Shown in pieces: positions 322 through 49,297 of a DNA stretch of 64,000 nt (positions are counted from its first letter, which is position 1; every line of letters starts with the position of its first letter). The stretch comes from Elusimicrobiota bacterium (GTDB lineage: Bacteria > Elusimicrobiota > Elusimicrobia > FEN-1173): positions 51,275 through 115,274 of the forward strand of contig JAYRXX010000025.1 in NCBI GenBank assembly GCA_041917295.1, written 5' to 3'. Position numbers and translations under genes: made by a program. Below the pieces are notes generated by a model. The model worked only from the letters and a program-made list of their open reading frames with translations, was not told the DNA's origin and made no database searches.

Positions 322-331
322 ACGGTCTCCC

Positions 332-12460: not shown

Positions 12461-12485
12461 GTAAAATGGATGGATTCTCCCCGCG

Positions 12486-16196: not shown

Positions 16197-16274
16197 CCCC
16201 CTCCTTCATTCCCGACTTCCTTTGAGCCGGCTCGTCCGTAAAGACGTGCCGGCCAAAGGCGGATCGGTGACTCC

Positions 16275-28543: not shown

Positions 28544-28544
28544 A

Positions 28545-32835: not shown

Positions 32836-32836
32836 A

Positions 32837-33178
32837 ATGAAAAAATGGATGAGCGTCGGATGTCTTCTGTTGTTAGGCGGTTGGGCGCTGGCTTCCACCA
32901 CGAAACCGAATAAAGACGGAGACCCACTGTTGGTCCCCGGCTCCTATACGGCCACGGTCCCGGCGTTTGTGTGCGGAGGATGTCCCGAGTGGATCCAGAC
33001 AAAGCTGGGCGCGGTAAAATCCCTGAAAAACGTGACGGTCTATCCAGAAACCCGTCGGGTGACGTTTACGGTAAAAAAGGGCGCGAAGGTGAAACGTTCA
33101 GACATCCAGAACGTGCTGGACGCCGCTGCCCGAGAGATGGGCATGGGCGCTGATTACACGTTGCGAAATTTTAGATAG
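32837..33178 (+). CDS. Small periplasmic HMA-like metal-binding protein (copper-chaperone-like)
   Basis: Signal peptide and a CGGC motif in an HMA-like beta-alpha-beta context (VPAFVCGGCPEWIQTKL); immediately follows the RND pump gene. Confidence 0.55.
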   Translation: MKKWMSVGCLLLLGGWALASTTKPNKDGDPLLVPGSYTATVPAFVCGGCPEWIQTKLGAVKSLKNVTVYPETRRVTFTVKKGAKVKRSDIQNVLDAAAREMGMGADYTLRNFR

Positions 33179-33265: not shown

Positions 33266-34021
33266 TTGCCGACAAAAAACAAGAACCCTCTTCTGCGTTG
33301 GGGAAAAAATAAGGCGCTGTTCGGCGTGGCGTTATTTATTGGAACGTCTTACGCCCGGGCGGTGGATCGTTATGTTCTGGATGTGCCCGCGTTTGTTATG
33401 GCGGGGGATCCAGACGTTTCGTTTTCGGTGACACCTCTGTCGGACGGTGTCGAAGACCCATCGTCTCACACCGTTCGCTTTGTCGATTTGCCCGCTGGAG
33501 TGAGCGTGGAGGCAACGGGTCCTTCGGCTCAGTCCTCGGTTCCCCAAACTCGGTATGTCGTTCAAGGGCGCCAGGATTTTAAGCTGGCCATACCCCCGTC
33601 TGTCGTTGAACGACGGATCTGGATCAAGGTTCAAAACACCGCCAAGGCCCGAATTCAAGGGGCGGGTGTTGTGAACGTTGAACGGCCTGTGCATCGATTT
33701 TCCATCACCCCATTGGGCAACAGCGCGCCCCGGGCGGGCGTTCCGTATCCGTTTCAGATCATGGCTTTCGACGAGGCGGGCGCGGTGGTGAGGTCCTTTC
33801 GGGGACCTGTTTCCTTCGCTGTGGCCCGGGGACAAGTGAGTCCGGCCGACTTGGCGGGGGATGCGTTTAAGAACGGCGCCGCCTCTGTTTCCGTCGAAAT
33901 TAGTGACGGGAACCCTTATGAAGCCAACCGGTTTTCCGTGTCGGCCCAGGAATCCTACGGTTCTCCGTCTCCTGCCCAAGGGACGGTGGACGTCTTGGTT
34001 CTTCCCAAGGAAAGCCCGTGA
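33266..34021 (+). CDS. Hypothetical secreted protein whose N-terminal module is paralogous to the N-terminus of the downstream giant protein
   Basis: Signal peptide; AVDRYVLDVPAFVMAGDPDVSFSVTPL aligns with AFDSYRITVPTDVMKGDPDVVFQVTPL of the next gene. Confidence 0.5.
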   Translation: MPTKNKNPLLRWGKNKALFGVALFIGTSYARAVDRYVLDVPAFVMAGDPDVSFSVTPLSDGVEDPSSHTVRFVDLPAGVSVEATGPSAQSSVPQTRYVVQGRQDFKLAIPPSVVERRIWIKVQNTAKARIQGAGVVNVERPVHRFSITPLGNSAPRAGVPYPFQIMAFDEAGAVVRSFRGPVSFAVARGQVSPADLAGDAFKNGAASVSVEISDGNPYEANRFSVSAQESYGSPSPAQGTVDVLVLPKESP

Positions 34022-37000
34022 GGGGCCTAACGTTTATGGGGCGGATTGGCTTGGCGACGTTCTCTTTGTTCGCGGGAACGGTGTCGGCCCTGGCTTTTGA
34101 CTCGTACCGAATAACGGTGCCCACGGACGTCATGAAGGGCGACCCCGACGTTGTTTTTCAGGTCACACCTCTTCAGGGCGCTTTGCCCCAATATTCGCCC
34201 CATAATATTTACATTTCACTTCCGAGCGGAATATTGGAAAACCCCTTGGCCGATCCGCCGAACGGATTGGATAACACCTCCATTGTTAACTGGGGTTTGT
34301 TTGCCAACAACAGCTCCGTGGCGGGGAACACGCCTCTGACCGTGACGGAAGCGTTGGCCGCTTCCCCTGTCACGACCACGAAATATTTTAATCTTCAAAA
34401 TGTCGTGCGAAGTTTTGAAATCGTGCCTCCGGCATCTTTTACGGGGACGACGGGCACGCCGTTCCAAATCACCGTTCGGGCCAAAGATGGCTTGGCCGGC
34501 GCCGGCGCGGTGGTGACCGGATTTAATGATGATGTTCTTGTTTCCGCCTTAATCGGCGATGTGGTGGTTAACGGCGCCGGCAACCTTGTCAGTGGTTCGG
34601 ATTTTGTCAACGGCGAAGCGGTGGTTTCGGTGATGTTGCGGGGCACGGACCCTTCCACCCGGACCAACCGGATCACGGTGTCGGCCAGCAACAATTATTT
34701 TAGTCTGGGGGTCGCTACCGGCTATGTGGACGTGAACGTGAACCCGGGATCCTACGACCATTTGGTCATGCTTTTTCCGGGAGAAACGTTGGTCCCGGGC
34801 AACATTCTGATCACCAACGGAAAAACCGGTACCGCCACGGCGGCCACGGCGAACGTGGCGGTCAGTCAGGTGTCGGTGTATTTGGTGGACGCGTTTAACA
34901 ACCCCGTGTTGTCGGCGCCGGGGGGAGGTGTAACACTCGATTATTCCTCGCTCAGTCACCCAGCCACCGATACGGTGCCGGGGCCCCGGACCATTTCGGT
35001 GGGAAACAACGTGGATATCGTTAGCGGTGGATTCAGCTTTCAGGTGGGCAACGTGTCCCACCAGATTCGGGTGGCCGACCAGGCCGATGCCACCAAAAAC
35101 AGTGTCACCTCGATTTCCGTCAACAGCGGTGCCGCCAACTTGATTTCCGTCGGCACCGTGTCCACCCCACAGACGGCGGGGCAAACCTTTACCATCACCG
35201 CCCGGGTTGTGGACGGAACACCTTCCGCCAATACCGTTGTCAGTTATCCCAGTGGGCGGGCCGTCAACGTCACCTTGACCAATTGCGCTGGAAATGGACT
35301 GGGCGGGGGGTCGCTGGATACCAATCCGTCCTTGGCGGGGGTTCAAACCACGGTGAATTTTACCAACGGCGTTTTTACCGGCCCCATTGTTCTGTACCCT
35401 CGGGCGGTCACGGCTTGCGTCAAATTTGACGACGGTCTTGGGAATTTCGGGGAGTCCAACGGATTTGTTATCCAAAATGGCGACCAGTTTCGTCTTCACA
35501 TTGTCATGCCCGGTCAAGCGTTTACCCCGGGCCAGGCTCCCGGTAACGCACCCTCGTTACCCACCACCCAAACGGCGGGGGACATCATTACCGCAACCGT
35601 TTACGTTGTGGACCAAGCCTGGAATGTGGTGAACGTTACCGATGGCGGGTGGACGCCGGGCGCTGTTGTGATTAGTTTGGAAAACAGCGTGGGAACGCCC
35701 GGTTACGTGGATCTCACTGTGGCCAGTCCGGATATGCCGGCGTCGGGCAACAACGCGTCCGCCACGGGTGTGCGATTAAGAACGGCGTACCCCGCGGGGG
35801 ACGCCCGGTTGGTGGCCCGCATGTCTGGTTTGGAAGGGCGCAGTGATCCGTTCACCATCAATCCCTCCGCCTACACCCAATTGGTGTTTGTCGCACCCGG
35901 TGAAACGTTGGCCAGCGGTATTCAGTCCAGCGTCCAACCGGATGGAAAAACGGGATCGCCCACTGATCAGGCCGTGAACGCGAACATACCTGTGGCCGTC
36001 CATCTGACCGACGCTTATTTTAACACCATCATCAACCCGCCTTTGGCGGGGGGGACCTGGCCCTCTTTGACGTTTTCAACCACGGCGCCGGCAGGAGCCA
36101 CCGTGACGTATTCGTTCTCAAATCCGTTTCTCATGACGGATGGTTCTTTTGATAACCAGCTGGTGTTGGGGACCATTGGGGCCAACACGCTCCGCGTGGT
36201 GGATACGAGCCCCACGCCCAAATCCATCAATCAAACCATCAACGTGACCGCCGGAGAGGTCACTCGGTTTTTGGTGACGCCCAACGCGGCGTCCTCAACG
36301 CCGGATGCCATCGCCATTCAAACCGCGGGGGTACCGTTTAATCTGACCTTTAAGGCTTTTGACCAATACGACAACGAGGCGAAAAATTTTTCCGGCGACG
36401 TTTATTTGGAACTGTGGGATAATGGCGTTCCCTTGTCCTACGGAGGCACCATTTCGCCCAGTACGGTGACCTTTGTGGCCCATCCGGTAACCGGCGGCGT
36501 CGTGGCCAATGTCCCGGTGACAATCACCTACGCGGGACAGGCGTTGGGCAGTGGAGCCGACTTTCTCCGCGTGAGGGCCTACGTGAACACGCCCACCATG
36601 CGTGAAGGGTTTAGCGCGTTTTTTAATGTTCAGGAATTATTAACTTGGTCGGACATCGTCATCACTCGGCCCGGCGAAAGCCTTCGCCCGGGGTTGGGAC
36701 CTCCTTATAAAACAGGCACACCCACCTCTGTCCCCGCGGGGGACTCGTTCGAGGTCACGGTGACAGCCGTGGATAGTTACGGAAACAAAGTGAATCAAAG
36801 CGGCGTGGCCGAGCTCAGCATGGTAACCCCCGGCGTGTTTGCCAATTTGGGTACGCCCCCCCGATTAACGTTCACCGCTGGGACAGAATCGGGTTATGTC
36901 CAAGTGTATACGGCCGGATCCTCGGTGATCCAGTCTTCCGTGGCCGCCAACGGGTTTACCGATCGGTCCACCGGGACCATCACCGCCGGATCCTACGCCG

Positions 37001-39918
37001 CGTCAACGGGCCGGTTGTTGTTGCTGGCGCCGGGCGAAACGCCTCTTGCCGGCTCCCCCTCGGCTCCGGGGAAAGATTCGTCCGGGATTTCGTCGGTGGT
37101 GGCCAACACCGCCATGTCCTATACCCTGTTGGCCTGCGACCGTTTTTACAACCGCGATCTCACTTACACGGGGAATCCCTTTGCCCTTTCGTCCGACGAC
37201 GGCGCTATTGCCTTATCCAGCCTGGCCGTGACCGCCGGGTCCGGCACCGTGAGCGGGGTGTATTTAAACGGCAATGTTCCTAACCCGTCCACGGTGAGGG
37301 TGACCGCGGTGGATCAGGGGAACTCCAGCAAAACGTCTTATTCCGATGTCCCTGTGTTGGCGGGGGCCCATTACACGGTCACCGTACCCACGGCGGCCAC
37401 GGTTGGATCCCCTTTTTCCATGACGGTTGAACTGATCGATCCCAGCACCGGTTTGCCCATGGCGGGGGCCAGCAACTCCATTGCGCTGGAGGCCTTGACC
37501 TCTTCCGGGACCGCCACCACCACCCCCATTGGCGTGGCCGTGGCCACCCTAAACAACGGATCGGTGACTTTTCAACAGTCCTATGGAAACGTGGAAGTGA
37601 TTAAGATTCGCGTCACCGACAGTTTTAACCGCGCGGCGGATTCCGGCAATATCGTGGTGGACCCCAACGGGCTTATCTACAAATTTACCTTGCCCTCAAC
37701 CACCGTTACCGCCGACGACGTGTTCCCCATCACCGTGGGGTTGTATGATTCGGTCCAACAAAGCGTTTTGATTCAAAACGCCGCTTATCAACACAGCTTT
37801 AATCTCCATGTGTCCACAACCGCACCGGGACCTCAAGCGCAGGGAACCTACCCGGTCAATGCCGCCACGTTGTCCAACGGAGTGGCCAACTTTTCGTTCA
37901 GTTACACCAAAGCCGAGACCATCGTGATCGCCGCGTCCGGAACCGTGGCGGGGTTCCCGACCGTCAGCGGGTCGGCCGCCATCACTATTCATCCCGGGGC
38001 CTATGTTCGACTCCAAGTTGTCCCCCCCGGCGAAACGGCGGTTCCCGGAATTCCTTCGACCACGGGGAAGGTGACCACGGGCGACAAAACCCAAGTGGCC
38101 AAACAAGGTTTTTCTGTGATCGTTAACGCGGTGGATCGGAACTGGAATGTTGTGACGTCGATCAATACGCCCAGCAATCCGACGGTGCGTTTGTCAGGTT
38201 CGGACGGGTCTCTTGCGGGACGGCCTTTGCAATCGTTTATGAACGGACAAAGCCTGTTTACGAATGTGGCCCTCAACACCCCACCGTTGGTCACGATTAC
38301 GGCCGATGATACGTCGAACACCAATTTGTTCCCTCAATCGGTGGCCATTCCTTTAAACGGGCCGTCCTACGTGGTTACACTTCCCCCGGGCGGTCCATTT
38401 TACAGCGGGGACGAACTGAATTATGTGGTGACCTTGGCGTCCGGGAGTGTTTCGACCCCCTATACCGTGTCTATTCAGCCCTTGAACGCGGCCACCTACG
38501 AACCCTTGGATCTGTCCGACCTTGTTGTGGTCAGCCCAGCCACCGCGTCGGCCCGCAACGTGGTGGACTTTGTCAACCCGTTGAACCTGCGAATGAAATA
38601 CAACGTGGCCCGGGATGTGGTATTTAAAATTTCGGACGCGGATGGGTGGCAGGGTTACTCGTCTACCGTTTCGTTCATTCCCAACGGGGTGGATTACGAG
38701 TTGTCGTTCCCCGCTGAAACCCAGGTGGGGCCGCCCACCACGTTCCCCATGATTCTCACCCCCCTGGACAAAGTGACGGGCACCACGGCCATTAATTTTT
38801 CAACGTCCGTGACCATCACGCCCGTGAGTCCCATCGGAACGCCGATCACGGGCACCCTGCAAAAAACCACGGCACTCATCGACAGGGGCGCTCAAACATT
38901 TCAACAGGCGTTTTCCCAATCGGGTGTGTTTTATTTCACGGTTTCCGATGGTGTCAACACCACCACCAGCACCACCATGAACTTTTTGCCGGGTCCACTG
39001 GCGTCCATGAGTTCGAGTCTTTCCCCGGTGTTGGAGGCGGGGAACACCGAGGTTGTGAGAGTGACTCTTCTGGACGCATTTAACAATCCCATCCCCGTTA
39101 CGGCCGTCACTTTGTCGCTGGCCGATTCGTCGTTTGGGAACTTGTCCCCTCTCAGTGGGATCACGAACGAGTATGGCTGGGTGTCTTCCACGTTCACCAC
39201 CTCTTCCCAAAAATCCGGGCGCGGCGAATTTCGCGCCGCGTCAGGAACCACGCGGTTGGCCCAGACGTTTCGTTTATTGGGACCGCCCACCACCACGCTT
39301 CGCCCGGCAGGAATGGGAGTTGAAGACGCGTCCAGTTACGCTGTTAAACCCGGGGACGATTTGTATTTTGATTTGAGCGTCGATACCGGCCTGGATCCCG
39401 TGGGCGTCACCTACAGCATTGATGGGGATCCGCCCATCACCACGACGGCCTACACCCATCTGGTGACGGGTATTTACTCGTTTGGGCCCATCAATTTTAG
39501 TGTCCCCGGTCGCCACACCGTTGAATACTACGGTGTGACTCAATCCACCGCTTCGCTCATGCTCCACACGGAAACGACCCGGACGAGCAAAACCATTTAT
39601 GTGTCCGCGGTCACCACACCGGAAGAAGGGATGGTGAATTATCCAAACCCCTTCCGGGCTGGTCGGGACTTGGCCTTTTTGGAATACCATCTTTCGGCCG
39701 ACGCGGGGGTTACCCTGACCATTTACGATTTATTGGGCCAAAAAGTATGGGAGCGGTCCTATTCCCAGGGTGAAAACGGGGGACAGTCCGGACTGAACCG
39801 CGTTTCCTGGGACGGTAAATCCAGCGACGGCGTGGTGGTGGGCAACGGCGGCTATGTGGCCGTGTTGGAAGCGGCGGATGGAACCAAACTAAAACGAAAA
39901 ATAGCGGTGAAAAAATGA
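34018..39918 (+). CDS. Giant (1966 aa) Ig/beta-repeat surface protein with a C-terminal FlgD-Ig-like / T9SS-type sorting domain
   Basis: Signal peptide; T/S/G/V-rich beta-strand repeats throughout; the C-terminal ~90 aa (NYPNPFRAG...LTIYDLLGQKV...WDGKSSDG...GGYVAV) matches the Por/T9SS C-terminal sorting-domain and FlgD-Ig pattern. Confidence 0.8.
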   Translation: MRGLTFMGRIGLATFSLFAGTVSALAFDSYRITVPTDVMKGDPDVVFQVTPLQGALPQYSPHNIYISLPSGILENPLADPPNGLDNTSIVNWGLFANNSSVAGNTPLTVTEALAASPVTTTKYFNLQNVVRSFEIVPPASFTGTTGTPFQITVRAKDGLAGAGAVVTGFNDDVLVSALIGDVVVNGAGNLVSGSDFVNGEAVVSVMLRGTDPSTRTNRITVSASNNYFSLGVATGYVDVNVNPGSYDHLVMLFPGETLVPGNILITNGKTGTATAATANVAVSQVSVYLVDAFNNPVLSAPGGGVTLDYSSLSHPATDTVPGPRTISVGNNVDIVSGGFSFQVGNVSHQIRVADQADATKNSVTSISVNSGAANLISVGTVSTPQTAGQTFTITARVVDGTPSANTVVSYPSGRAVNVTLTNCAGNGLGGGSLDTNPSLAGVQTTVNFTNGVFTGPIVLYPRAVTACVKFDDGLGNFGESNGFVIQNGDQFRLHIVMPGQAFTPGQAPGNAPSLPTTQTAGDIITATVYVVDQAWNVVNVTDGGWTPGAVVISLENSVGTPGYVDLTVASPDMPASGNNASATGVRLRTAYPAGDARLVARMSGLEGRSDPFTINPSAYTQLVFVAPGETLASGIQSSVQPDGKTGSPTDQAVNANIPVAVHLTDAYFNTIINPPLAGGTWPSLTFSTTAPAGATVTYSFSNPFLMTDGSFDNQLVLGTIGANTLRVVDTSPTPKSINQTINVTAGEVTRFLVTPNAASSTPDAIAIQTAGVPFNLTFKAFDQYDNEAKNFSGDVYLELWDNGVPLSYGGTISPSTVTFVAHPVTGGVVANVPVTITYAGQALGSGADFLRVRAYVNTPTMREGFSAFFNVQELLTWSDIVITRPGESLRPGLGPPYKTGTPTSVPAGDSFEVTVTAVDSYGNKVNQSGVAELSMVTPGVFANLGTPPRLTFTAGTESGYVQVYTAGSSVIQSSVAANGFTDRSTGTITAGSYAASTGRLLLLAPGETPLAGSPSAPGKDSSGISSVVANTAMSYTLLACDRFYNRDLTYTGNPFALSSDDGAIALSSLAVTAGSGTVSGVYLNGNVPNPSTVRVTAVDQGNSSKTSYSDVPVLAGAHYTVTVPTAATVGSPFSMTVELIDPSTGLPMAGASNSIALEALTSSGTATTTPIGVAVATLNNGSVTFQQSYGNVEVIKIRVTDSFNRAADSGNIVVDPNGLIYKFTLPSTTVTADDVFPITVGLYDSVQQSVLIQNAAYQHSFNLHVSTTAPGPQAQGTYPVNAATLSNGVANFSFSYTKAETIVIAASGTVAGFPTVSGSAAITIHPGAYVRLQVVPPGETAVPGIPSTTGKVTTGDKTQVAKQGFSVIVNAVDRNWNVVTSINTPSNPTVRLSGSDGSLAGRPLQSFMNGQSLFTNVALNTPPLVTITADDTSNTNLFPQSVAIPLNGPSYVVTLPPGGPFYSGDELNYVVTLASGSVSTPYTVSIQPLNAATYEPLDLSDLVVVSPATASARNVVDFVNPLNLRMKYNVARDVVFKISDADGWQGYSSTVSFIPNGVDYELSFPAETQVGPPTTFPMILTPLDKVTGTTAINFSTSVTITPVSPIGTPITGTLQKTTALIDRGAQTFQQAFSQSGVFYFTVSDGVNTTTSTTMNFLPGPLASMSSSLSPVLEAGNTEVVRVTLLDAFNNPIPVTAVTLSLADSSFGNLSPLSGITNEYGWVSSTFTTSSQKSGRGEFRAASGTTRLAQTFRLLGPPTTTLRPAGMGVEDASSYAVKPGDDLYFDLSVDTGLDPVGVTYSIDGDPPITTTAYTHLVTGIYSFGPINFSVPGRHTVEYYGVTQSTASLMLHTETTRTSKTIYVSAVTTPEEGMVNYPNPFRAGRDLAFLEYHLSADAGVTLTIYDLLGQKVWERSYSQGENGGQSGLNRVSWDGKSSDGVVVGNGGYVAVLEAADGTKLKRKIAVKK

Positions 39919-41300
39919 GCCGACAACATGGATTGAGTTTTCAAGTGGGGTTTGTATTTGCGTTGACGGGACTGGTATTGACCAGTTCGGTTCAAGCCGA
40001 CACGTCGTTTGGAAAACCCGGGGACTATTTGAGGTATGGGGCCGGCGCCCGGGCGTTGGCCATGGGCGGCGCCTTTACCGCGGTGGCCGACGATGTGTCC
40101 GCCGATTACTGGAACCCCGCCGCCCTGGCGTTTATGGACGAATATCAGTTTCAAACCATGTACGCGCCGTTTCATTTGGACAGCGACCTTTATTACCTGG
40201 CGTTTGGCGCGCCCTTGGGGCCCACGTGGGGAACCGTTGCGGTATCGGACACGATGCTCCGATCCACGGGATTCCAAAGCCGGGACAATTTGAATTTTGT
40301 TTCAGGTGGGGACGGCACCGTGTCGGACAACGCCCTCTCGGTTTCGTACGGTCGTTCGTTTCAGGAGTTTTGGTCGGCGGGAGCCCGGTTGCGGTTTTTG
40401 CAACAAAACGTCGTAAACGATTCCGGGAACGCCATGGCCATGGATTTGTCGGGGTACACGCGACCTTTTCACGGCGTGAGCGCAGGGTTGACGATCAACA
40501 ATTTAAACCGGCCGGAAATTAATTTGGACTCGGATCCCGATGTCTATCGACCTTTCTATCGAATGGGATTGGCTTACCGGGCGCCGCGGGACCTGTTCAT
40601 CGTGGGTTTGGACGCCAATAAAGTCGAAAATCAGAGCGCATACTACACGATGGGCGTTGAATACAATCCCACGCCGGTCCTGAGCCTGAGGGCGGGATGG
40701 GACCAGAACCAAGAAATCACCGCTGGGGTCGGATTGGCCATGCGCTACGCCCGGTTCGACTATGCTTTTGCCAACCAGGACGATTTGGGCGCGACCAACC
40801 GGGTCTCCCTCACGTTGCGGTGGGGCAATATTTATCAGGCCCGCATCGCGCCGGAAGGCCTTGCGCCGAAGTCGGACGCGATATATATAGAAGGGATTCG
40901 AAACGAAGTAAAGTTTAAAGTGGACGTCCCGCCGTTCAAGCTTGTGAGGTGGACGTTGATCCTGACCGACGAGGATGGCCGAACTGTGCGCACGTTGACG
41001 CAACAGTACCATCCCGGCACGGCGATTTTGTGGGACATGACCGACGAGAACGGCCGGCCGGTGAAACGCGGCGCTTACAAATATCGGTTCGCCGTGGAAT
41101 ACAAAACCGGGCGGTTCTGGGAAGAGCGGGGGCGATTCCGATTGGATTACAAAACCAACGCCGTGCCGGAAATCGATCTGCGCATGCGCACGCCCGAGGG
41201 GTTGGAAGGCGCCCAACCCGATCCCGCGCCGGCGCCCGCCACGGCGCCGGTTCCGTCAGAGAATAAAGAAACACAAACAGATAAACAGGCACAGCCTTAA
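39915..41300 (+). CDS. FadL/PorV-like outer-membrane beta-barrel protein with a C-terminal FlgD-Ig-like domain
   Basis: Signal peptide. GAGARALAMGGAFTAVADDVSADYWNPAALAF matches the FadL/TodX/PorV N-terminal signature. The C-terminal ~80 aa (WTLILTDEDGRTVRTL...WDMTDENGRPVKRGAYKYRF) is FlgD-Ig-like. Translationally coupled to the giant protein gene (ATGA overlap). Confidence 0.65.
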   Translation: MSRQHGLSFQVGFVFALTGLVLTSSVQADTSFGKPGDYLRYGAGARALAMGGAFTAVADDVSADYWNPAALAFMDEYQFQTMYAPFHLDSDLYYLAFGAPLGPTWGTVAVSDTMLRSTGFQSRDNLNFVSGGDGTVSDNALSVSYGRSFQEFWSAGARLRFLQQNVVNDSGNAMAMDLSGYTRPFHGVSAGLTINNLNRPEINLDSDPDVYRPFYRMGLAYRAPRDLFIVGLDANKVENQSAYYTMGVEYNPTPVLSLRAGWDQNQEITAGVGLAMRYARFDYAFANQDDLGATNRVSLTLRWGNIYQARIAPEGLAPKSDAIYIEGIRNEVKFKVDVPPFKLVRWTLILTDEDGRTVRTLTQQYHPGTAILWDMTDENGRPVKRGAYKYRFAVEYKTGRFWEERGRFRLDYKTNAVPEIDLRMRTPEGLEGAQPDPAPAPATAPVPSENKETQTDKQAQP

Positions 41301-41313
41301 GGGGACGGACACC

Positions 41314-44300
41314 ATGACGAAACTCATGTGGAAACGCGGTGCGGCGGTTTTGTTGGCGGCATGGGGGCTTTCGGGGCTCGGCCAGGCGGCGTTTGTGAAC
41401 CCAGACGCGGATCGGCTGTTTACGGTGCTGTCGGGGGCGTTTCAATCGGGCAAACACGAATCGTCCATTGCCGAATGCCGCAATTTCCTGCGTCAATTTC
41501 CGCGCCATCCCAAGGCGCCATCGGTTCAATACATCAAGGCCGAGGCCTTCTTCCTTCAAAAGCGTTGGCCGGAAGCCGCCGCCGAATACAAAGAATTTAT
41601 CGACAACAACCGCGGCCCCGACAGCGCCAATCTGGCGGTGTCGGCTCGGTTCCGGTTGGGCGAATGCCACCTCCACTTGAAAAAGTATTTGACCGCCCTG
41701 GACCATTTTGCCTGGGTTGAAAAATCCAAAAACGACGTGTTGCGTGCGGAGGCGTTGTTGGGATCCGCGTATTGCTATTTGGGACGGCGGGAAAGCCCCC
41801 GGGCGGAAGGGTATTTTGTGAAACTGCTGGAATCCCACGCGGGGTACGCTTCTCTGCCGCGGGTGGTGGTGCCCTTGGCGTTGATTTACATGGAACGGGG
41901 AGAATACAAAAGCGCCTTGGATTTGCTGGAACGGGCCCCGGATGATCCCGCCTGTTTGTATTACCGAGGGGTGTGCCAACGGCTGTCCAACCGTGTGATC
42001 GCTTCCGCTCAGCTTTTGAAAGAAACCTTGGACAACGATTCCGAAAAAGATTGGACCGACAAAGCCCTGTATGAAATGGGGGAATCGTATTTTCAATCGA
42101 AGGAATACCCGTTGGCTTACGACTCCTTTCGCCGGCTTTACAAAAACGAACTCGCCAGCCCTCTTCGGCCCTTCGCCCTGTTTCGCATGGGGTGCGTGGA
42201 TTTCCAGAACGGCAATTTCGAACAGGCCGGTTTGAACTGGGGCCAGTTGGTCAAAGAATTTCCCCAAACCCTGTCGGGGCCCGCCAGCCAATATTTGCTG
42301 GCGGAAATATCGCTTCGCCAAGGGGAACTGGCCAAAGCGATCCCCGGCTTTTCGGCCTTGATGACGAACGACGACTACACCATGGACGCCCAGTTTAAAG
42401 TGATTTGGAGTTTGGCTGTCCAAGGCCAATACGATTTGGCCATCACCAAAGCCGACCATTTCATTAAAGATTTCGAGTGGGGCGAACTGCACGCCAAAGT
42501 GAGCCTGATTAAAGGCCTTTGTCAAATGCTGATGAAAAAAACCGACGAATCCCTGGTGACGTTTCAATTCATCATCGATCGCTATCCGAACACATCCTAC
42601 TTTGACAAAGCCTTGTATCTGATGGCGGTCACGATGATCCAGGAACGGCGATACGCCGAGGTGGTGACCCACGTGTACGGGTTGCTCAAACGCGCTCCCG
42701 CCACGCCCACGCCGTGGCAGGCGGAAACCTATTATTGGGTGGCCGAAGCCTATTACAACATCGAGCAGTTTGAATTGGCCCGTCAAACATACGAATTGGT
42801 CACCAAAAATTATCGTTCGTCCCCGTGGGTTCCGGGAGCGATGCTGGGCATGGCCGCCAGCCTGTCGCGGTTAGGCGAATACGACGCGGCCGCCGACATG
42901 CAAGCCCGCGCCCGGGAGCTGTCCCAGGAAATCGGATCGGCCGACACCAAAAAAGCCGGCGTGTTGGATTCCGCCGACGTGTTCTTCAACAAACGGGAGT
43001 ATGCCCGGGCGTCGGCCTTTTACGAGGAATTTATCACCAAATACCCGGACGACAGCCGAATTGAACGGGCCCTGTACCAAGCCGGGTTGGCGTTGTATCG
43101 CCAAGAATACTTCACCGACGCCATCGCCAAGTGGAGCCTGTTGTCGACCAAATACAAAAATTCCCGCCACGCCCCCGACGCGTTGTTTCAAACCGCTCGA
43201 ACCTATTTCGGGTTGGGCCAATACAACCCGGCTTACCAATCGTTTCGCAAGTTAACCGAGATGTATCCCGATTCGCCCCTGGCCAAAGAGGCGCTCCTTC
43301 AAATGGGCCAGTGTTTCTACAACGCGGGCGACATTCCCCGGGCCATCGAACAGTACAACGCCTACCTGCAAAAATACCCTTCGGACGAAAAAACAACCGA
43401 AGTCCAGGAACTGTTGCAAATGGCCTATTACAAGCAGGGCAAATCGGCTGGAGACATGAAAGCCCTGGTTTCGGCGTTTCCCAAAAGCAAGTTTACTGCC
43501 GATATTTATTGGGAACTGGGCGCCGAAGCCTACAACCGCAAAGACTACGACAGGGCCTTGGACTATTTTGAACGGTTGGTTCTGGATTTTCCCGACACCA
43601 CCCAGGCCACGCAAGCGTTTTATTACAAAGCGGACTCTTACTTCTTGAAAGGGGATTTCACGGCGTCTGCGAACGCGTTCAAGAATTTCATAACGAATTT
43701 TCCCCAAGAAGCCTTAACGCGCGACGCGCGGTTTAAATTGGCGGTGTGCTTTTTTAGCCTGAAAGATTACGGCCAGGCGGCGGTGGCGTTCAATGATTTC
43801 CAAGAAGCCCACCCGTCGGACCCGAAAGCACGGGACGCGGCGCTCAACATCCCCGTGTGTTACACCAAGGCCGGCCAGCCCTACCAGGCCATCGACGCCT
43901 ATGGGAACTTTATCCGCCGTTACCCCAACGACGAAAAAACCGCCTACGTGACCATGCAGGTCGCCCAGCTGTATGAAGATGCCGAGGATTATTTGAAGGC
44001 GGTGGAAACCTACAAGAACGTGCCGCTGAACGATCCCGACGTTTTTGAGGCGACGTTTAACATGGCCCGGTGTTACGAAAAACTGAAGGCCCCCACGGAA
44101 CAGAAGAAGGCTTATGAGACCCTGCGGACCCTGTCGCCCAAAGACAACACGTTCCGGTTGGCCGGACTGGCGTTGTTGGGGGAAATGTATGAACGGGAAG
44201 GGGCCGCGGGGGCCGCGGCGGCGGTGTATGCGGACATCGCGTCGTTCAGCACCAACGCGGAGTGGCGTTCCATCGCCCAGCAAAAAGTGAAAGAATTGGG

Positions 44301-44337
44301 CGGGGTCGTCCAAGAAGAGAAAAGACGGAAAAAATAA
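41314..44337 (+). CDS. Large TPR-repeat protein (1007 aa), secreted or periplasmic
   Basis: Signal peptide and more than 15 TPR-like 34-aa repeats (W/LG/Y/A/F/A/P patterns, e.g. AEAYYNIEQFELARQTYELV); resembles a CpoB/YbgF-like protein on a much larger scale. Confidence 0.8.
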   Translation: MTKLMWKRGAAVLLAAWGLSGLGQAAFVNPDADRLFTVLSGAFQSGKHESSIAECRNFLRQFPRHPKAPSVQYIKAEAFFLQKRWPEAAAEYKEFIDNNRGPDSANLAVSARFRLGECHLHLKKYLTALDHFAWVEKSKNDVLRAEALLGSAYCYLGRRESPRAEGYFVKLLESHAGYASLPRVVVPLALIYMERGEYKSALDLLERAPDDPACLYYRGVCQRLSNRVIASAQLLKETLDNDSEKDWTDKALYEMGESYFQSKEYPLAYDSFRRLYKNELASPLRPFALFRMGCVDFQNGNFEQAGLNWGQLVKEFPQTLSGPASQYLLAEISLRQGELAKAIPGFSALMTNDDYTMDAQFKVIWSLAVQGQYDLAITKADHFIKDFEWGELHAKVSLIKGLCQMLMKKTDESLVTFQFIIDRYPNTSYFDKALYLMAVTMIQERRYAEVVTHVYGLLKRAPATPTPWQAETYYWVAEAYYNIEQFELARQTYELVTKNYRSSPWVPGAMLGMAASLSRLGEYDAAADMQARARELSQEIGSADTKKAGVLDSADVFFNKREYARASAFYEEFITKYPDDSRIERALYQAGLALYRQEYFTDAIAKWSLLSTKYKNSRHAPDALFQTARTYFGLGQYNPAYQSFRKLTEMYPDSPLAKEALLQMGQCFYNAGDIPRAIEQYNAYLQKYPSDEKTTEVQELLQMAYYKQGKSAGDMKALVSAFPKSKFTADIYWELGAEAYNRKDYDRALDYFERLVLDFPDTTQATQAFYYKADSYFLKGDFTASANAFKNFITNFPQEALTRDARFKLAVCFFSLKDYGQAAVAFNDFQEAHPSDPKARDAALNIPVCYTKAGQPYQAIDAYGNFIRRYPNDEKTAYVTMQVAQLYEDAEDYLKAVETYKNVPLNDPDVFEATFNMARCYEKLKAPTEQKKAYETLRTLSPKDNTFRLAGLALLGEMYEREGAAGAAAAVYADIASFSTNAEWRSIAQQKVKELGGVVQEEKRRKK

Positions 44338-44371
44338 AACGATTTAAACAACGTCCTCTAAGGAGCGCGAT

Positions 44372-44995
44372 ATGATGCAGATGGGTTTCAAAGAGTGGTT
44401 CATGGTCAATCCACCCATCATCAGCACGATTTTGGTGTTTTCCGTGCTGTTGGTGGCGTTCACGTTTGAGCGCATGTGGGTTTTTCGCCAGGAAGCGAAG
44501 TTTCCCAAAGAGCTCTGGGACCGGATCGTCGGACTTGTGCGGGAACGTAAACTGCGCGACGCGATCGCTCTGTGCGAAGGCACGCCGGGGGTGTTCGCCC
44601 GGGTGTTCCGGTCCGGCTTGGAAGGAGCGCTGGTGTCCCGGCTGGACGCGGAAGACGGCATGGTGATCGAAAAAGAAGAGGGCCAGGAAATTTTGCGCAA
44701 GCGGGTCGGTATGTTCGGCACCATTTCTTTCATTTCGCCTCTCATTGGGTTGTTGGGTACCGTGTTGGGCGTGTTGCGCGCCTTCCACGATTTGGCCAAA
44801 TCGGGGTCCGGCGGACCCTCGGTGGTCGCGGCCGGTATTTCGGAAGCGTTGATCACAACGGTGGCCGGGTTGGTGGTGGCGGTTCCGGCGGCCATGATAT
44901 ACAACTACTTCAATTTTCGTCTGCGCGCCATCCTGGTGGAGATGAACACCTACGGCCAGCGATTGCTGTTGACCGTGTTCGGAGAAAAGCGATAG
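44372..44995 (+). CDS. MotA/TolQ/ExbB proton-channel protein
   Basis: 207 aa with three TM helices and a conserved C-terminal TM2-TM3 region (GLLGTVLGVLRAF...AGISEALITTVAGLVVAVPA). Confidence 0.85.
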   Translation: MMQMGFKEWFMVNPPIISTILVFSVLLVAFTFERMWVFRQEAKFPKELWDRIVGLVRERKLRDAIALCEGTPGVFARVFRSGLEGALVSRLDAEDGMVIEKEEGQEILRKRVGMFGTISFISPLIGLLGTVLGVLRAFHDLAKSGSGGPSVVAAGISEALITTVAGLVVAVPAAMIYNYFNFRLRAILVEMNTYGQRLLLTVFGEKR

Positions 44996-45001
44996 GGTTC
45001 C

Positions 45002-45427
45002 ATGAAACGAGCCAGCATTGAGAAAGGGGAAAACGAGGAAGCGTCGGAAATCAACGTGGTGCCGTTGGCGGACATCTCGTTGGTGCTCCTGATTATCCTC
45101 ATGCTCATCACGCCCATGGTGATGCAGTCCATGATTAAAATCGCCTCTTCCGGCGCCGCGACCGCGGTTGCGGTCAATGAGGCCGAAAAAGAAAAGCCCC
45201 TGATCGTCGAAGTTCGCCCGGAAGGATTTTGGTTGAATAAAAACAAAATGGAGTCGGCCGTTGACCTTCAGCGCTATTTGGCCGGGGAACTGTCGCGGAA
45301 AAACGACCGAACCGTGATTATCACCGCCACCAAAGGGGTCCGCCACGGAATGGTCGTGGCCGCGTTGGATATGTCCAAACAGGCCGGCGCCGAAAAATTA
45401 TCGTTGGTTAAGAGAGCCAAAAAATGA
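45002..45427 (+). CDS. ExbD/TolR family protein (first copy)
   Basis: Single N-terminal TM helix (INVVPLADISLVLLIILMLITP) and an ExbD periplasmic domain; 141 aa. Confidence 0.85.
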   Translation: MKRASIEKGENEEASEINVVPLADISLVLLIILMLITPMVMQSMIKIASSGAATAVAVNEAEKEKPLIVEVRPEGFWLNKNKMESAVDLQRYLAGELSRKNDRTVIITATKGVRHGMVVAALDMSKQAGAEKLSLVKRAKK

Positions 45428-45846
45428 AACGCGTCAAAGAGCAAGGCAACTCTATTTCCGGGATCAACATCACCCCGATCATTGATATTACGCTGGTGTT
45501 GCTCATCATTATGTTGGTGGCGGCGCCGGTGTTGAATATTCCCAACATGAACGTGGAACTGCCCGAAGCCTACACCTCGGAAACCAAACAGCAGAACGTG
45601 TCGGTCTCCTTGGGCACGGATCTGCGGGTGGCCATCGATGAAAACATCGTGCCCATTGAAAACCTGCCCCGGCTGTTGGACGCCGTCTTAAAAAAGAAAC
45701 CGTCTTCGATCGTTATCATCCGGGCCGATAAAGACGTGGACTATGAAAACGTCGAAAATTTGATTGAAACGATCAAAACAAAAACCCGCGCCAAAAAAAT
45801 TGCCGTGGCCACAAAACAAAAAACCGTGACCCCGGGAGCCCCCTGA
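45424..45846 (+). CDS. ExbD/TolR family protein (second copy)
   Basis: INITPIIDITLVLLIIMLVAAP TM helix; 140 aa; ATGA-coupled to the first copy. Confidence 0.85.
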   Translation: MKRVKEQGNSISGINITPIIDITLVLLIIMLVAAPVLNIPNMNVELPEAYTSETKQQNVSVSLGTDLRVAIDENIVPIENLPRLLDAVLKKKPSSIVIIRADKDVDYENVENLIETIKTKTRAKKIAVATKQKTVTPGAP

Positions 45847-47018
45847 TGTTGACGGTCAACGACCATATATTTGGGAGTCCCCGGGAGATGTTGTGTGTGG
45901 CCGTGGCGTTGGCCCTTCATGTTCCGCTCTATTTCTGGCAGGCGCGCCCGGACACGGGCGTGGCCGCCGATCCCATAACGGAAATTGATTTTATGGTCGA
46001 AGAGGAAGAACGGGAAAAACCGCCTCCGCCTCCGGAAGAAAAAAAAGAAACCACCAGTTTTTTCAAGAAAATCCAAGAAGCCGTGGGTTTGGCCACCCCC
46101 AAACCGTTGCCCAAATTGGTGATTGAAACAAAGCCCAAAACCGAATTGGCGGGGTTGGCCGACACCAATAAAATTCAGGCCCCCGCCAAAATGGCCGAGT
46201 CCATGCAACAGCAGGCCCGGCTGGTGGAGAAAGACCGCACCGTGGCCGGGGCTTTTGATGTGGGAAAAATTGAAACCAAGGGGCCCGGTTTGGCGGGTGT
46301 CGGGATGGGGCCCGGGGACAAGCTGGGGGGCGGGACGTTAAAAGAAAAATCGTCGGCGTTTAAAATTGCCCAAGGGGATCTGCCCTTTGCGGTTAAGAAA
46401 AGCGCCGGTGGGTTGGCGGATTCCGATGCCGATGCGCCGCGGATTGCCCTTTCAAACAAAACCGATAAGCGGGTGACGTCGGTGTCCACGGCGTTTTTTG
46501 GGACCGGTGGCGGCACCGGTGGCGGCGACGGGGCCGGGGAAGGCGGCGGAGGCGCTCTCAAAGACAAAAGCGGGGGGAAAGGGTTGGTTGGCGTGTCGGG
46601 CGGTTTTTCCAGAATGGGTGCCCCAGGAACGGTTTCGGGGTCCGGCGGCGGCGGGCTGGTGGGCGTCCCCTCCGGGAAACCCGGCGCCGGCGGAGCCGGC
46701 GCGGGCGGTGGCAAAGTTCCCTACGAAATTTCCGGGTCGGTGTTTGGCCGGGGTATTTTGTATCAGGTGCTTCCCAAACTTCCGGATTGGGCGAAAGAAA
46801 AAGGTCTTTTTGCCATTGTTCGCATCGATTTTTTTGTGCGCCATACCGGTGAAGTGAACGTCAATAAAACCATCGTGAGGCAGAGTTCGGGATACCCCAA
46901 TTTGGACACGACAGCCATGGAGGCGTTAAACCAATGGCGGTTCGCCCCGTTGGACGATCCCGCCCAGAAAGGCAAAGAACAGACGGGAACCATTTCCTTT
47001 ACATTCAAGGCCTTGTAA
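45846..47018 (+). CDS. TonB-family energy transducer
   Basis: N-terminal TM helix, a Pro/Glu/Lys-rich spacer (EEEREKPPPPPEEKKE), a Gly-rich region, and a C-terminal TonB domain (ALNQWRFAP). Confidence 0.75.
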   Translation: MLTVNDHIFGSPREMLCVAVALALHVPLYFWQARPDTGVAADPITEIDFMVEEEEREKPPPPPEEKKETTSFFKKIQEAVGLATPKPLPKLVIETKPKTELAGLADTNKIQAPAKMAESMQQQARLVEKDRTVAGAFDVGKIETKGPGLAGVGMGPGDKLGGGTLKEKSSAFKIAQGDLPFAVKKSAGGLADSDADAPRIALSNKTDKRVTSVSTAFFGTGGGTGGGDGAGEGGGGALKDKSGGKGLVGVSGGFSRMGAPGTVSGSGGGGLVGVPSGKPGAGGAGAGGGKVPYEISGSVFGRGILYQVLPKLPDWAKEKGLFAIVRIDFFVRHTGEVNVNKTIVRQSSGYPNLDTTAMEALNQWRFAPLDDPAQKGKEQTGTISFTFKAL

Positions 47019-47029
47019 CGGAGGACACA

Positions 47030-48100
47030 ATGAGACAGCGTGCTTGGGCGTTGATTTTAGCGGGATGCGTGGCGGTCGCCTATTCCGCCGTGGCTGAGGA
47101 AGCCCCATCCTTAAAGAAGTCTTCTCGATCAAAGAAACCCGCGCCCTCCACCCGTGCATCGACGCCGGTCCCGGATAACGTCCCGGCTCCCGTTGTTGTT
47201 CGGGAACCCCAAAAGCCCGTGGTTCCGCCGCCGCCTCCCAAACAAACTGCCCGTCCGGCGGCTTCTGTGCCGCCCGTTTCGGAACCGGCCGGCGGCGACA
47301 GCCTGGGATCATTGGACGTGGTCGGCCAGGCCAAAGACAAAGTGAATATCGAAAAAGTCACGCCCGAAATAAAAGTCGACATGAAAGAGCTGGTGGATTC
47401 GGTTACTGACAAAACGGAAAAATTGCTGGATCAGACCCGAACCATTCCTTCCGATGAGGATTTTCGCCGTTTCGACAGCGTTCAGACCCAACAAACCGCC
47501 CGGCCCTGGTTGCCGGATTTGGTGGAGCCGCCGCTCATCAGCTTTCAACCATCGCCTGCGGAAACCGCCGTGGTGGCCTGGCGTTTGGAAGTCACCGACG
47601 ACAAGGGGGACGTGATTCACACCATCACCGGCAAGGGCAACCCGGTTAAGGAAATTGTCTGGGACGGGTTTAATCGCAAAGGGGACATGATCCGGGTCGC
47701 GTCGGCCTATTCGTTTCGATTTATAACGGTGGACGAGTTGAAAGGCACACACACCACCTTGGGAAAAGCGTTCACGCTCCGGCACTTAAAATACAAAGAC
47801 AAGAAAAACATGATTGTTGAAATTTCGTCCAATTATTTGTTCGAGGAGGAGCGGTTCAATCCGGAGGCTTTGCCAATTTTTGAACGGGTCATCGATGTGT
47901 TGCGGGAGTATTCCGGTTACCCCTTTGTGGTGGAGTTTCAAACCCGGGACCACGCCGGCGAAACCGTCAAAGCCCGCCAAAAACGCGTCACCGAGAAAAT
48001 TGCCGCCGATTTGTTGTTGGCCCCCGACAGCGTTCGGTTCACTTACGGGCCCATCCAAGACCGCGGCGACGTGGTGCGATTCGTTATTAAACTCCGCTAA
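47030..48100 (+). CDS. Periplasmic protein with a degenerate OmpA/Pal-like C-terminal domain
   Basis: Signal peptide and a Pro-rich linker. The C-terminal VVEFQTRDHAGETVKARQKRVTEKIAADL loosely parallels the OmpA-like VEGHTD...N..LS.RRA motif; GGAGGA RBS. Confidence 0.45.
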   Translation: MRQRAWALILAGCVAVAYSAVAEEAPSLKKSSRSKKPAPSTRASTPVPDNVPAPVVVREPQKPVVPPPPPKQTARPAASVPPVSEPAGGDSLGSLDVVGQAKDKVNIEKVTPEIKVDMKELVDSVTDKTEKLLDQTRTIPSDEDFRRFDSVQTQQTARPWLPDLVEPPLISFQPSPAETAVVAWRLEVTDDKGDVIHTITGKGNPVKEIVWDGFNRKGDMIRVASAYSFRFITVDELKGTHTTLGKAFTLRHLKYKDKKNMIVEISSNYLFEEERFNPEALPIFERVIDVLREYSGYPFVVEFQTRDHAGETVKARQKRVTEKIAADLLLAPDSVRFTYGPIQDRGDVVRFVIKLR

Positions 48101-48177: not shown

Positions 48178-48747
48178 ATGCAAAGGATTCGATTGGTTTT
48201 GGCGGCGGTGGTTCTTTCGACGGGGTTGGGGGGCGTTGAGGCCCGGGCGGCGAAGCCGTCTCTTTCACTTGACGATTTGGGGTTTTCCGCCGAGCAAGTG
48301 CGGGGCGATTCCGCCGCGCAGGCCACTCTTCACAAACGATCCAAGATGTTAAAAACCCACCAGATTTTGGGTCTCATCACGGCGGTGCCCATGGCGGCTA
48401 CGGTATTCACCGCCTCCGGCGCGGAGGGAGGCTCGGACGCAAAACGGGATTTGCACAAAAACATGGCCATCACCACCGGGGCCCTCTACTTCACCACGGC
48501 GTCGTTTTCCTTGTTCGCCCCGGAGGTGGAAGAAAAGAAAGCCACGGGCGCAACAAAATTCCACAAGGCGTTGGCCTGGATTCATTTCCCGGCCATGGTT
48601 ATTGCGCCCATTTTGGGGTACGAAGCGTATAAACAAAAGGAGCGGGGCGAGGAAGTGCACGGCATGGCCAAACAGCATTCCACCGTGGCGGGCGTGGGCG
48701 CGGCGGCTTACTTTCTTTCCATGGCCGTGATGGTCATCAATTTCTAA
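48178..48747 (+). CDS. Hypothetical membrane protein
   Basis: 189 aa with a signal peptide and 3-4 hydrophobic helices; no motif recognised. Confidence 0.5.
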   Translation: MQRIRLVLAAVVLSTGLGGVEARAAKPSLSLDDLGFSAEQVRGDSAAQATLHKRSKMLKTHQILGLITAVPMAATVFTASGAEGGSDAKRDLHKNMAITTGALYFTTASFSLFAPEVEEKKATGATKFHKALAWIHFPAMVIAPILGYEAYKQKERGEEVHGMAKQHSTVAGVGAAAYFLSMAVMVINF

Positions 48748-48760
48748 GGGGGATCGTTTG

Positions 48761-49297
48761 ATGAAATCCATGCTTTTGCTTTTGGTGGCCGTGTTTGCTT
48801 TGGCTCTGACGGCCCAGGCCGAATCCTGGGTTTTGGATAAATCCAAACTGACGTATCATGTGACGCACACTCTTCACAAAGTCGAAGGGACCAACACCGG
48901 GGCTCGGGGTAAAGGCGTCTGTGATAAGGACGGGTGTCATTTTTTGGTGGCGGCCACCGTCGGCGGGTTTGTTTCGGGGGACACCAATCGGGATTTGCAT
49001 ATGCAGGAAACCACCCGGGGGGCGACGTTTCCCATGGTGGCGGTTTCCGTGTCTTTGCCCGCGGTTCCGGCGGGACAAACATTTACGGCGGATTTGGATA
49101 TTGAATTTGCTGGGGAAAAATCCTCCTACAAAGCCGTCCCCTTTACCGTGGTGGATCGGTCGGAAGGGGCCCTTCATTTTAAAGGCGTCGTTCCGCTGAA
49201 CATTGATGATTTTAAGATCCCGGCTCCGTCTCTTCTCGGCATGGCCATCAAAAGCCAGGTGCCGGTCGACGCGGAAATGACCTGGAAAAAACAATAA
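48761..49297 (+). CDS. YceI-like periplasmic protein
   Basis: About 178 aa with a signal peptide; the size and beta-rich sequence pattern are consistent with the YceI lipid/polyisoprenoid-binding family; weak call. Confidence 0.5.
   Translation: MKSMLLLLVAVFALALTAQAESWVLDKSKLTYHVTHTLHKVEGTNTGARGKGVCDKDGCHFLVAATVGGFVSGDTNRDLHMQETTRGATFPMVAVSVSLPAVPAGQTFTADLDIEFAGEKSSYKAVPFTVVDRSEGALHFKGVVPLNIDDFKIPAPSLLGMAIKSQVPVDAEMTWKKQ

Follow-up and report, generated by a model that had tools for sequence, protein, structure and literature searches.

A 64,000-nucleotide stretch of Elusimicrobiota bacterium DNA (GenBank assembly GCA_041917295.1, contig JAYRXX010000025.1, positions 51,275 to 115,274 of the forward strand; hereafter the window) contains a cluster of nine genes, g1 to g9, in which two sets of known envelope components stand side by side. 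The first consists of a giant surface protein (g2), ending in a C-terminal domain of the sorting type (CTD), and a PorV/PorQ-family outer membrane (OM) barrel that is extended by an Ig-like domain (g3). The second consists of a protein built of tetratricopeptide repeats (TPR), an ExbB-ExbD-ExbD-TonB set and an Ig/OmpA-like protein (g4 to g9). The pairing is conserved, no publication describing the cluster was found in the literature searched, and both the linkage and the barrel-Ig fusion are supported as real. We propose, with a probability of about 45%, that the surface protein and its barrel are functionally coupled to a motor of the Ton/Tol type driven by the proton-motive force (PMF), so that the cluster would be a two-module envelope operon. 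This suggests that the cluster may be an undescribed envelope machine.

Conserved linkage of the cargo/barrel pair to an ExbB-ExbD-ExbD-TonB block

The nine open reading frames (ORFs) are co-directional and form near-continuous coding sequence on the plus strand at positions 33266-48100 of the window. Genes g1 and g2 overlap by GTGA (34018-34021) and g2 and g3 by ATGA (39915-39918), while g6 and g7 share 4 nt and g7 and g8 share 1 nt. The remaining gaps measure 6-34 nt, with 13-34 nt between g3, g4 and g5. The spacing is operon-like, and judged by the sequence the GTGA and ATGA overlaps are sites of translational coupling. A first-pass annotation, made from the letters of the window, had described tightly spaced or overlapping co-directional genes, in agreement with this layout.

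The order giant CTD protein, barrel-Ig, TPR protein of ~1000 aa, ExbB, ExbD, ExbD, TonB and Ig/OmpA-like protein recurs in homologous loci fetched for comparison (numbered L001, L002 and so on), while the flanking genes are unrelated and the identity of the barrel spans 89% to 28%. The order is kept in Elusimicrobia assembly GCA_016722575.1 (L001, barrel identity 58%), in L002, L003 and L088 (~39%), in L004 (35%), in L092 and L093, and in a metagenome-assembled genome (MAG) of a second phylum, Candidatus Krumholzibacteriia (L021, 28%). Three further loci with barrels of 34-37% identity (L009, L010 and L011) keep it as far as they extend; L009 lacks the giant gene at a contig edge and L011 ends inside the TPR gene. 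In L089 the order is permuted to barrel, giant protein and TPR protein, and giant and barrel still adjoin the TPR-Exb-TonB block. The linkage of a cargo-like protein and a barrel to this block, as claimed in the first-pass annotation, thus persists through considerable divergence of the barrel, a change of flanking genes, one permutation and a second phylum.

ExbB was tabulated in the fetched loci, where barrel-Ig genes were scored if 5 kb or more of sequence was available downstream and other barrels were scored for ExbB within 10 kb. An ExbB gene lies near the barrel in all 11 scorable loci of this barrel-Ig clade (10 fetched loci and the window) and in neither of the two barrel-Ig loci of FCPU426 (L013, L026), hence in 11 of 13 barrel-Ig loci overall, but near only ~3 of 65 other PorV-like barrels. 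The association of barrel-Ig and ExbB is specific, and the linkage is supported.

The homologues of the g3 barrel and of g9 whose source is named are almost all labelled as Elusimicrobia or Elusimicrobiota MAGs, the rest being plain 'bacterium', and the closest reach 89-99% identity. A protein identical to the g5 ExbB is also encoded on a 205-kb contig. Because of the labels of these homologues the host is not a member of the Bacteroidota or the FCB group, and the Bacteroidetes framing of the first-pass annotation was wrong.

Two observations concern the taxonomy and the content of individual loci. Four MAGs (L009, L011, L017, L046) are labelled 'Clostridia bacterium' yet encode PorV-like OM barrels, and the labels are probably wrong. 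In L021, the g9-like gene is followed at 11804-12574 by a gene for a small OM beta-barrel of the TDE1717 family, which scores 67 bits at a cut-off of 135.

The PorV/PorQ-family barrel carries an Ig-like domain

Gene g3 (39915..41300, plus strand) encodes a 461-aa protein in which an OM barrel is followed by a C-terminal Ig domain and a tail rich in Pro. It reaches the PorV/PorQ family model NF033709 with 121.8 bits (cut-off 90) over aa 38-302, and the barrel orthologue of L021 scores 124.3 bits. The equivalog cut-offs for PorV (NF033710, 43.2 versus 250 bits) and PorQ (NF033711, 58.3 versus 220 bits) are not reached. Likewise, the FadL/TodX model PF03349 yields 25.2 bits at a cut-off of 29.7, in an alignment restricted to the 35 residues of aa 47-81. 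An AlphaFold2 (AF2) model built with a 19-sequence alignment shows N-terminal helices, 14 strands between aa 77 and 301, a seven-strand sandwich at aa 310-411 and a disordered Pro-rich tail. The best Foldseek matches of this model are PorV chains from the Flavobacterium johnsoniae SprA-PorV complexes, 8gl6_F (E 1e-10) and 6h3i_F (E 1.7e-9), with TMt values of 0.60-0.63, while FadL and TodX reach 2.5e-6 at best. In a comparison of the family profile with the PDB sequences, PorV was the sole match. By curated model and by fold, g3 is a member of the PorV/PorQ family without being an equivalog of either PorV or PorQ. Of the FadL/PorV-like barrel announced in the first-pass annotation, the PorV-like part therefore stands and the FadL part does not; a role of g3 as a FadL transporter was rejected on the failure of PF03349 and the better match to PorV.

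The Ig-like beta-sandwich of g3 (aa ~310-411, 40842..41147, plus strand) is modelled with a pLDDT of ~80-90. Its match to FlgD_ig is sub-threshold (22.3 bits), and residues W373, D377, P382, R385, G386 and Y388 are kept in 19 of 19 aligned family members. The barrel-Ig fusion, for which a structure prediction had been called for, is hence seen both in the model and in the family alignment. As the number of barrel strands is even, the Ig domain would be located in the periplasm. A comparable periplasmic C-terminal extension has been modelled for FadL-like barrels of Treponema pallidum (PMC8407342). Among the representatives of clusters at 50% identity, roughly 40 of the top 150 combine a barrel with an Ig domain, within a wider PorV-like superfamily of ~27,000 representatives. 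One distant barrel-Ig representative (P0297) lies on a contig of 1.8 kb.

The giant surface protein and its C-terminal domain

Upstream of the barrel, g2 (34018..39918, plus strand) encodes a repetitive, beta-rich surface protein of 1966 aa, the candidate cargo. Its translation shows a signal peptide and a repeated 'PGE..PG...GKTG...D..N' module. No Pfam match was found outside the last ~90 residues, and no sequence relative in the PDB; the L089 orthologue has a weak match to Big_1. Orthologues of 1000-1900 aa adjoin the barrel in all syntenic loci.

The CTD of g2 (aa ~1875-1965 of 1966, 39640..39915, plus strand) reaches TIGR04183 (Por_Secre_tail), the model of the type A sorting domain in type IX secretion systems (T9SS), at the extreme C-terminus with 24.1 bits (cut-off 23). 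It also resembles the CTD region of PorU. The Pfam model FlgD_ig gives 22.5 bits, under its cut-off of 27, and Pfam Por_Secre_tail no match at E 0.01 or better. The description of this end as T9SS/FlgD-Ig-type is thus marginally upheld by TIGR04183, with FlgD_ig remaining sub-threshold. A hidden Markov model was made from 28 homologous CTDs, as the first-pass annotation had proposed, and the g2 CTD was its sole match in the 64-kb window.

The short gene at the start of the cluster, g1 (33266..34021, plus strand), encodes a 251-aa secreted protein with a signal-peptide-like N-terminus. It is paralogous to the first ~245 aa of g2, with 32% identity over 234 aa (BLASTP, E 2e-19), so that the module earlier said to be common to both proteins is indeed present. 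g1 has zero Pfam and zero NCBIfam matches, and among the loci examined a homologue is present only in L001.

The TPR protein and the Ton/Tol-type motor genes

The 1007-aa secreted protein encoded by g4 (41314..44337, plus strand) consists of TPR throughout, as first described, with matches to TPR_6, TPR_16 and YfiO and with TIGR02795 found in 10 separate stretches; the repeats are of the YbgF/BamD type. It has a Sec-type signal peptide without a lipobox. Orthologues in the syntenic loci are matched by phmmer at E 1e-59 to 0, while the interval of L010 gave no phmmer match.

It is followed by an ExbB/TolQ-type proton channel (g5, 44372..44995; PF01618, 94.5 bits), two ExbD/TolR paralogues (g6, 45002..45427, and g7, 45424..45846; PF02472, 72.2 and 77.3 bits) and a 390-aa TonB/TolA-like transducer (g8, 45846..47018), all on the plus strand. 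The transmembrane (TM) Asp is retained in both g6 and g7, and the two ExbD paralogues remain distinct in all loci. g8 has a His-bearing TM segment at the N-terminus, a short run of PPPPP, a long linker and a TonB_C domain (PF03544, 33.2 bits, cut-off 24.6; TIGR01352, 35.3 bits). With scores above the Pfam gathering scores, g5-g8 meet the domain definition of a TonB-ExbB-ExbD set, in line with the first assignment. At the equivalog level g5-g7 fall below the ExbB/TolQ and ExbD/TolR cut-offs, g5 being under those of both tolQ and exbB.

No TonB-dependent receptor (Plug plus TonB_dep_Rec) was found among the scanned ORFs of the 64-kb window or in the Pfam gene tables of L001, L002, L003, L088, L089 and L090, and the cluster contains no TolB-like gene. 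A barrel acting as an ordinary FadL transporter and a TonB set serving a nearby receptor were among the findings that, according to the first-pass annotation, would speak against its proposal; the barrel fails the FadL model, and neither the window nor the tabled syntenic loci encode such a receptor.

In sequence composition, the g8 linker is Gly-rich (aa ~215-300) rather than Pro-rich as is usual. In L001, gene calling splits the region equivalent to g8 (15933-17110) into two genes, of 115 and 277 aa.

An Ig module common to the barrel and the last protein of the cluster

The last gene, g9 (47030..48100, plus strand), encodes a secreted protein of 356 aa. Its start is most likely the ATG at 47030, located 4 nt after GGAGGA; the 388-aa version first listed, with a start at 46934 that overlaps tonB, has been revised accordingly. 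From the N-terminus, the protein is composed of a signal peptide, a disordered Pro-rich linker, a highly conserved segment (aa ~93-170), a FlgD-type Ig domain (aa ~170-245, 47537-47764, plus strand) and an OmpA/MotB-like domain (aa ~250-356, 47777-48097, plus strand). The latter two were assigned from the AF2 model, which has a pLDDT of ~90 over aa 160-356, and from Foldseek matches to MotB-C (3s06_B, E 2.7e-4, TMt 0.51), PA0833 (6jfw, TMt 0.59), OprF-PGB (5u1h) and FlgD. PF00691 gave no match to g9, so the 'degenerate OmpA-like' protein of the first-pass annotation is borne out by its fold only. In the alignment of the family R316 is invariant, the Asp position of peptidoglycan binding varies, and no lipobox is conserved. 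In total 46 homologues of g9 were collected, those with a named source being labelled Elusimicrobia, Elusimicrobiota or plain 'bacterium', and a metagenome scan with g9 returned at least 7 loci.

The Ig domains of g3 and g9 share 33% identity (BLAST, E 9e-8). At the level of sequence they are paralogous, and they form the sole demonstrable pair among the g2 CTD, the g3 Ig and the g9 Ig, as neither Ig domain shows significant BLAST similarity to the g2 CTD.

A relative of the g9 region is present in L087 (11510-18623, minus strand), where genes for a 1033-aa TPR protein, a 1082-aa protein with FlgD-Ig repeats and a canonical OmpA/MotB domain (Lsa66-like, 250 bits) and a g9-like protein of 298 aa were observed in this order. 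No Exb genes were found within range in L087.

Possible coupling of the two modules and alternative explanations

Domain identities and folds are established, as are the paralogous relation of the Ig domains and the conservation of the synteny. From these we infer the functional coupling, and all contacts in the following scheme are to be read conditionally. Module A would be a pair of cargo and anchor, formed by the giant Ig-repeat CTD surface protein g2 and its dedicated 14-stranded PorV/PorQ barrel g3, with g1 as a short paralogue. Module B would be a PMF transducer of the Ton/Tol type, comprising ExbB, two distinct ExbD proteins, a TonB-like protein, a periplasmic TPR scaffold of ~1000 aa and an Ig-OmpA/MotB-like protein. 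One clade may have joined the pair to the transducer. ExbB, ExbD1 and ExbD2 would form the motor in the inner membrane and g8 would span the periplasm, while g4 may serve as scaffold and g9 may be associated with the cell wall. The Ig domain of g3 could be the periplasmic handle of the barrel, and the Ig module common to g3 and g9 a docking element. Motor, TPR scaffold, g9 and barrel would then form one trans-envelope assembly acting on the complex of barrel and cargo. As its output, the PMF would serve to deploy, retain or displace the surface protein, and not to import nutrients. An export or motility function of the cluster is conjecture.

Several observations weigh against a coupling. In L090 (Elusimicrobiota), a TPR-ExbB-ExbD-ExbD-TonB-g9-like block is located beside polysaccharide genes, without giant protein or barrel, and in L091 (Desantisbacteria) ExbB-ExbD-ExbD-TonB stands alone. 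Conversely, the FCPU426 loci L013 and L026 combine barrel-Ig and CTD cargo without module B, and the distant barrel-Ig gene of L099 is preceded by a CTD-like C-terminus and followed by no TPR gene. Pairs of CTD cargo and PorV-like barrel are common, with >25 loci devoid of any Exb or TonB genes. In addition, the g2 CTD clears TIGR04183 by 1 bit only and is thus marginal, the OmpA-like domain of g9 is undetected by sequence models, and promoter and terminator scans of the cluster were no better than the shuffled expectation and hence uninformative. Modules A and B are separable.

This separability is what favours the strongest of the alternatives, in which the two modules are unrelated neighbours: a cargo/PorV-like pair would lie 5' of a general-purpose Ton system, made up of TPR-ExbB-ExbD-ExbD-TonB and an OmpA-like accessory, that energises TonB-dependent receptors encoded elsewhere, and one clade would have inherited the synteny by common descent. 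Each module is found without the other (L090, L091, L013, L026 and numerous cargo-barrel pairs), and the ExbB-ExbD-ExbD-TonB core is generic. Against such a chance neighbourhood, the linkage is still seen where the barrel has diverged to 28% identity, where the gene order is permuted and in a second phylum, the first (g3) and the last (g9) member of the block share an Ig module, and g3, g4 and g5 are separated by the short gaps given above. Moreover, no TonB-dependent receptor is present in any neighbourhood seen, and ExbB is rare near other PorV-like barrels. We consider this explanation a serious one, though somewhat unlikely. If the motor were a housekeeping Ton system, the cluster would reduce to the widespread pair of a cargo and its dedicated PorV-like anchor, which is useful for annotation and unsurprising.

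Alternatively, the block may form a Tol-Pal-like system for tethering the OM or keeping the envelope intact, with g5 as TolQ, g6 and g7 as TolR, g8 as a TolA-like, g9 as a Pal-like and g4 as a CpoB-like protein; the barrel would be an anchor that replaces Pal/TolB, and the giant protein a passenger. The best equivalog-type matches of g5 and g6 are indeed tolQ and tolR, g4 matches YbgF/CpoB repeats 10 times, and the OmpA/MotB fold of g9 has a counterpart in the canonical OmpA domain that L087 encodes at the same position. On the other hand, the tolQ, tolR and CpoB scores are all under the equivalog cut-offs or result from the summation of repeats, TolB is missing from the cluster, g9 has no conserved lipobox, and the obligatory giant CTD protein is left unexplained. 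A canonical Tol-Pal system with TolB and a lipidated CpoB has been reported elsewhere in Elusimicrobia (PMC12204202). This makes the tether an unlikely explanation, and an identity with canonical Tol-Pal is ruled out by the lack of TolB and of a Pal lipoprotein and by the separate system reported for the phylum.

A more far-reaching version of the coupling would be a self-contained machine, independent of the canonical T9SS, in which the motor acts through the TPR scaffold and the Ig/OmpA-like connector to drive translocation, surface deployment or gliding of the CTD adhesin. We regard it as unlikely; if true, it would add a third solution to GldLM/T9SS and Agl-Glt. An ordinary FadL-type importer of hydrophobic compounds beside a Ton system is hardly credible, since the weak Toluene_X match at the N-terminus of g3 and the presence of FadL and TodX among its structural matches stand against the passing PorV/PorQ model, a lead of PorV by ~4 orders of magnitude in the Foldseek E-value and the constant pairing of the barrel with a giant CTD protein.

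Motor-free pairs of a giant CTD protein and a PorV-like barrel were seen in Elusimicrobia, Fibrobacteraceae, Ignavibacteriales, Cytophagia and FCPU426, and many of their barrels are fused to a C-terminal TPR. In many Elusimicrobia MAGs (L012, L018, L020, L022, L025, L027, L030, L050 and L055, upstream positions 1-9900), ORFs of 7 to almost 10 kb, most of them cut by the locus edge, end in a g2-like CTD directly 5' of ~540-aa fusions of a PorV-like barrel and TPR, a recurrent giant-cargo/barrel pair without a motor. A Rosetta-stone argument from such Elusimicrobia fusions (P0050 and others) was rejected, as the TPR part of the fusion does not specifically resemble g4; they are a generic precedent only. 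Another PorV-like barrel beside a stator-type motor was observed in Elusimicrobia RIFOXYA2_FULL_53_38 (GCA_001800375.1; L005, 10001-18288), where a barrel-TPR fusion is followed by genes for a 654-aa protein with FliG_M/FliG_C and TPR, a 766-aa protein without assignment, FlbD, MotA and MotB.

Comparison with known envelope systems

The closest known counterparts of g3 are the T9SS shuttle PorV and the PorQ/PorV barrels of the attachment complex in Bacteroidota (F. johnsoniae SprA-PorV, 6H3I and 8GL6). Like g3, they are 14-stranded and belong to the same NCBIfam family, and PorV is likewise paired with a protein that ends in a type-A-like sorting domain of Ig fold. In contrast, g3 has the additional, presumably periplasmic, Ig domain and the Pro-rich tail, and its gene has its own cargo and a Ton-type motor as neighbours instead of porU. 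No sprA/sov, porK/L/M/N (gldK-N) or porU/porZ genes were found in the 64-kb window, the part of the genome covered, and no report of a T9SS in Elusimicrobia was found in the literature searched.

The arrangement of g2 and g3 is also reminiscent of SprB-SprF, and of type-B CTD cargo with PorP-like barrels, in the gliding/T9SS of Bacteroidota, where the gene of a giant repetitive adhesin adjoins, and is translationally coupled to, that of a dedicated OM barrel. The SprB adhesin is ultimately moved by a PMF motor, and an analogous movement may be imagined for g2. Here, however, the barrel is of the PorV/PorQ and not the PorP/SprF type, the CTD is type-A-like, and the motor is ExbBD/TonB-type instead of GldLM.

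For Myxococcus Agl-Glt gliding, a TolQR-type motor, TonB-like periplasmic proteins, TPR scaffolds, OM barrels and a surface adhesin form one trans-envelope machine. The cluster recalls this overall logic without orthology and is much smaller. Orthology of g4 to GltE was not found, the score of 42.8 bits against a cut-off of 225 reflecting generic TPR similarity only.

Module B has its nearest counterparts in the TPR/tolQ/two-tolR/transducer clusters described in PMC12204202, where an upstream TPR gene occurs in the vWA-transducer clusters of the PVC group. Common features are the ExbB/TolQ channel, two heterologous ExbD/TolR proteins, a transducer with a TM His and TonB_C, and the upstream TPR gene. 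Module B differs in the lack of a nearby TonB-dependent receptor, in the Gly-rich linker, and in the linked Ig-OmpA-like protein and PorV-like barrel.

The FadL-like/UPF0164 barrels of T. pallidum, whose C-terminal TPR helices are modelled in the periplasm (PMC8407342), and the barrel-TPR fusions of Elusimicrobia belong to the same barrel superfamily as g3 and have a periplasmic interaction domain, which sets a precedent for periplasmic partners of such barrels. In g3 an Ig sandwich forms the extension instead, and the TPR occur in a protein of their own, the 1007-aa g4. Leptospira proteins of the Lsa66 type, finally, combine FlgD-Ig and OmpA domains, an architecture common to g9 and the 1082-aa protein of L087, but g9 reaches 19.5 bits where the cut-off is 700, and its OmpA domain is degenerate in sequence.

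What is understood of PorV-type barrels and CTD sorting signals comes from the Bacteroidota T9SS only, and TonB-type motors are known chiefly for energising import receptors or Tol-Pal. In Elusimicrobiota, the tie of a PorV-family barrel plus cargo to a Ton-type motor may indicate that 5:2 PMF motors have an unrecognised use at the OM. Alternatively, CTD cargo may here be handled in a way that is ancestral or simply different. The cluster comprises a small and concrete set of eight or nine proteins.

Genomic surroundings of the cluster

The neighbours of the cluster in the window are unrelated to it. On the 5' side lies a heavy-metal efflux set of the resistance-nodulation-division (RND) type, composed of OEP, an HlyD-type protein that carries a heavy-metal-binding domain, AcrB and HMA. 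On the 3' side, two small ORFs without family match, g10 and g11 (48178..49297, plus strand), encode a predicted membrane protein of 189 aa and a secreted protein of 179 aa and are followed by a P-type ATPase. Both follow g9 in L001, L092, L093 and L094, but not in L002, L088, L089 and L021. They are thus kept in close relatives only, and their membership in the system, which was considered, is not favoured; they are probably not part of it. The remaining window encodes housekeeping functions (PolA, Fpg, CoaE, Rho, RF1, PrmC, a MurA-like protein and PFK).

The RND set (OEP, membrane-fusion protein and AcrB) occupies positions 27242-33178, directly 5' of the cluster, and in the distant locus L002 an RND efflux set (1-4157) likewise lies directly upstream of the cluster, though on the opposite strand, which may be coincidental or reflect a neighbourhood that recurs. 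A 1362-aa ORF (5167-9255, plus strand) without a Pfam match at E 1e-4 or better is located between coaE and a gene for isocitrate/isopropylmalate dehydrogenase. Two adjoining GGDEF diguanylate cyclase genes are located at 21281-24011, and a GGDEF gene is also found 3' of the cluster in L001 and L088.

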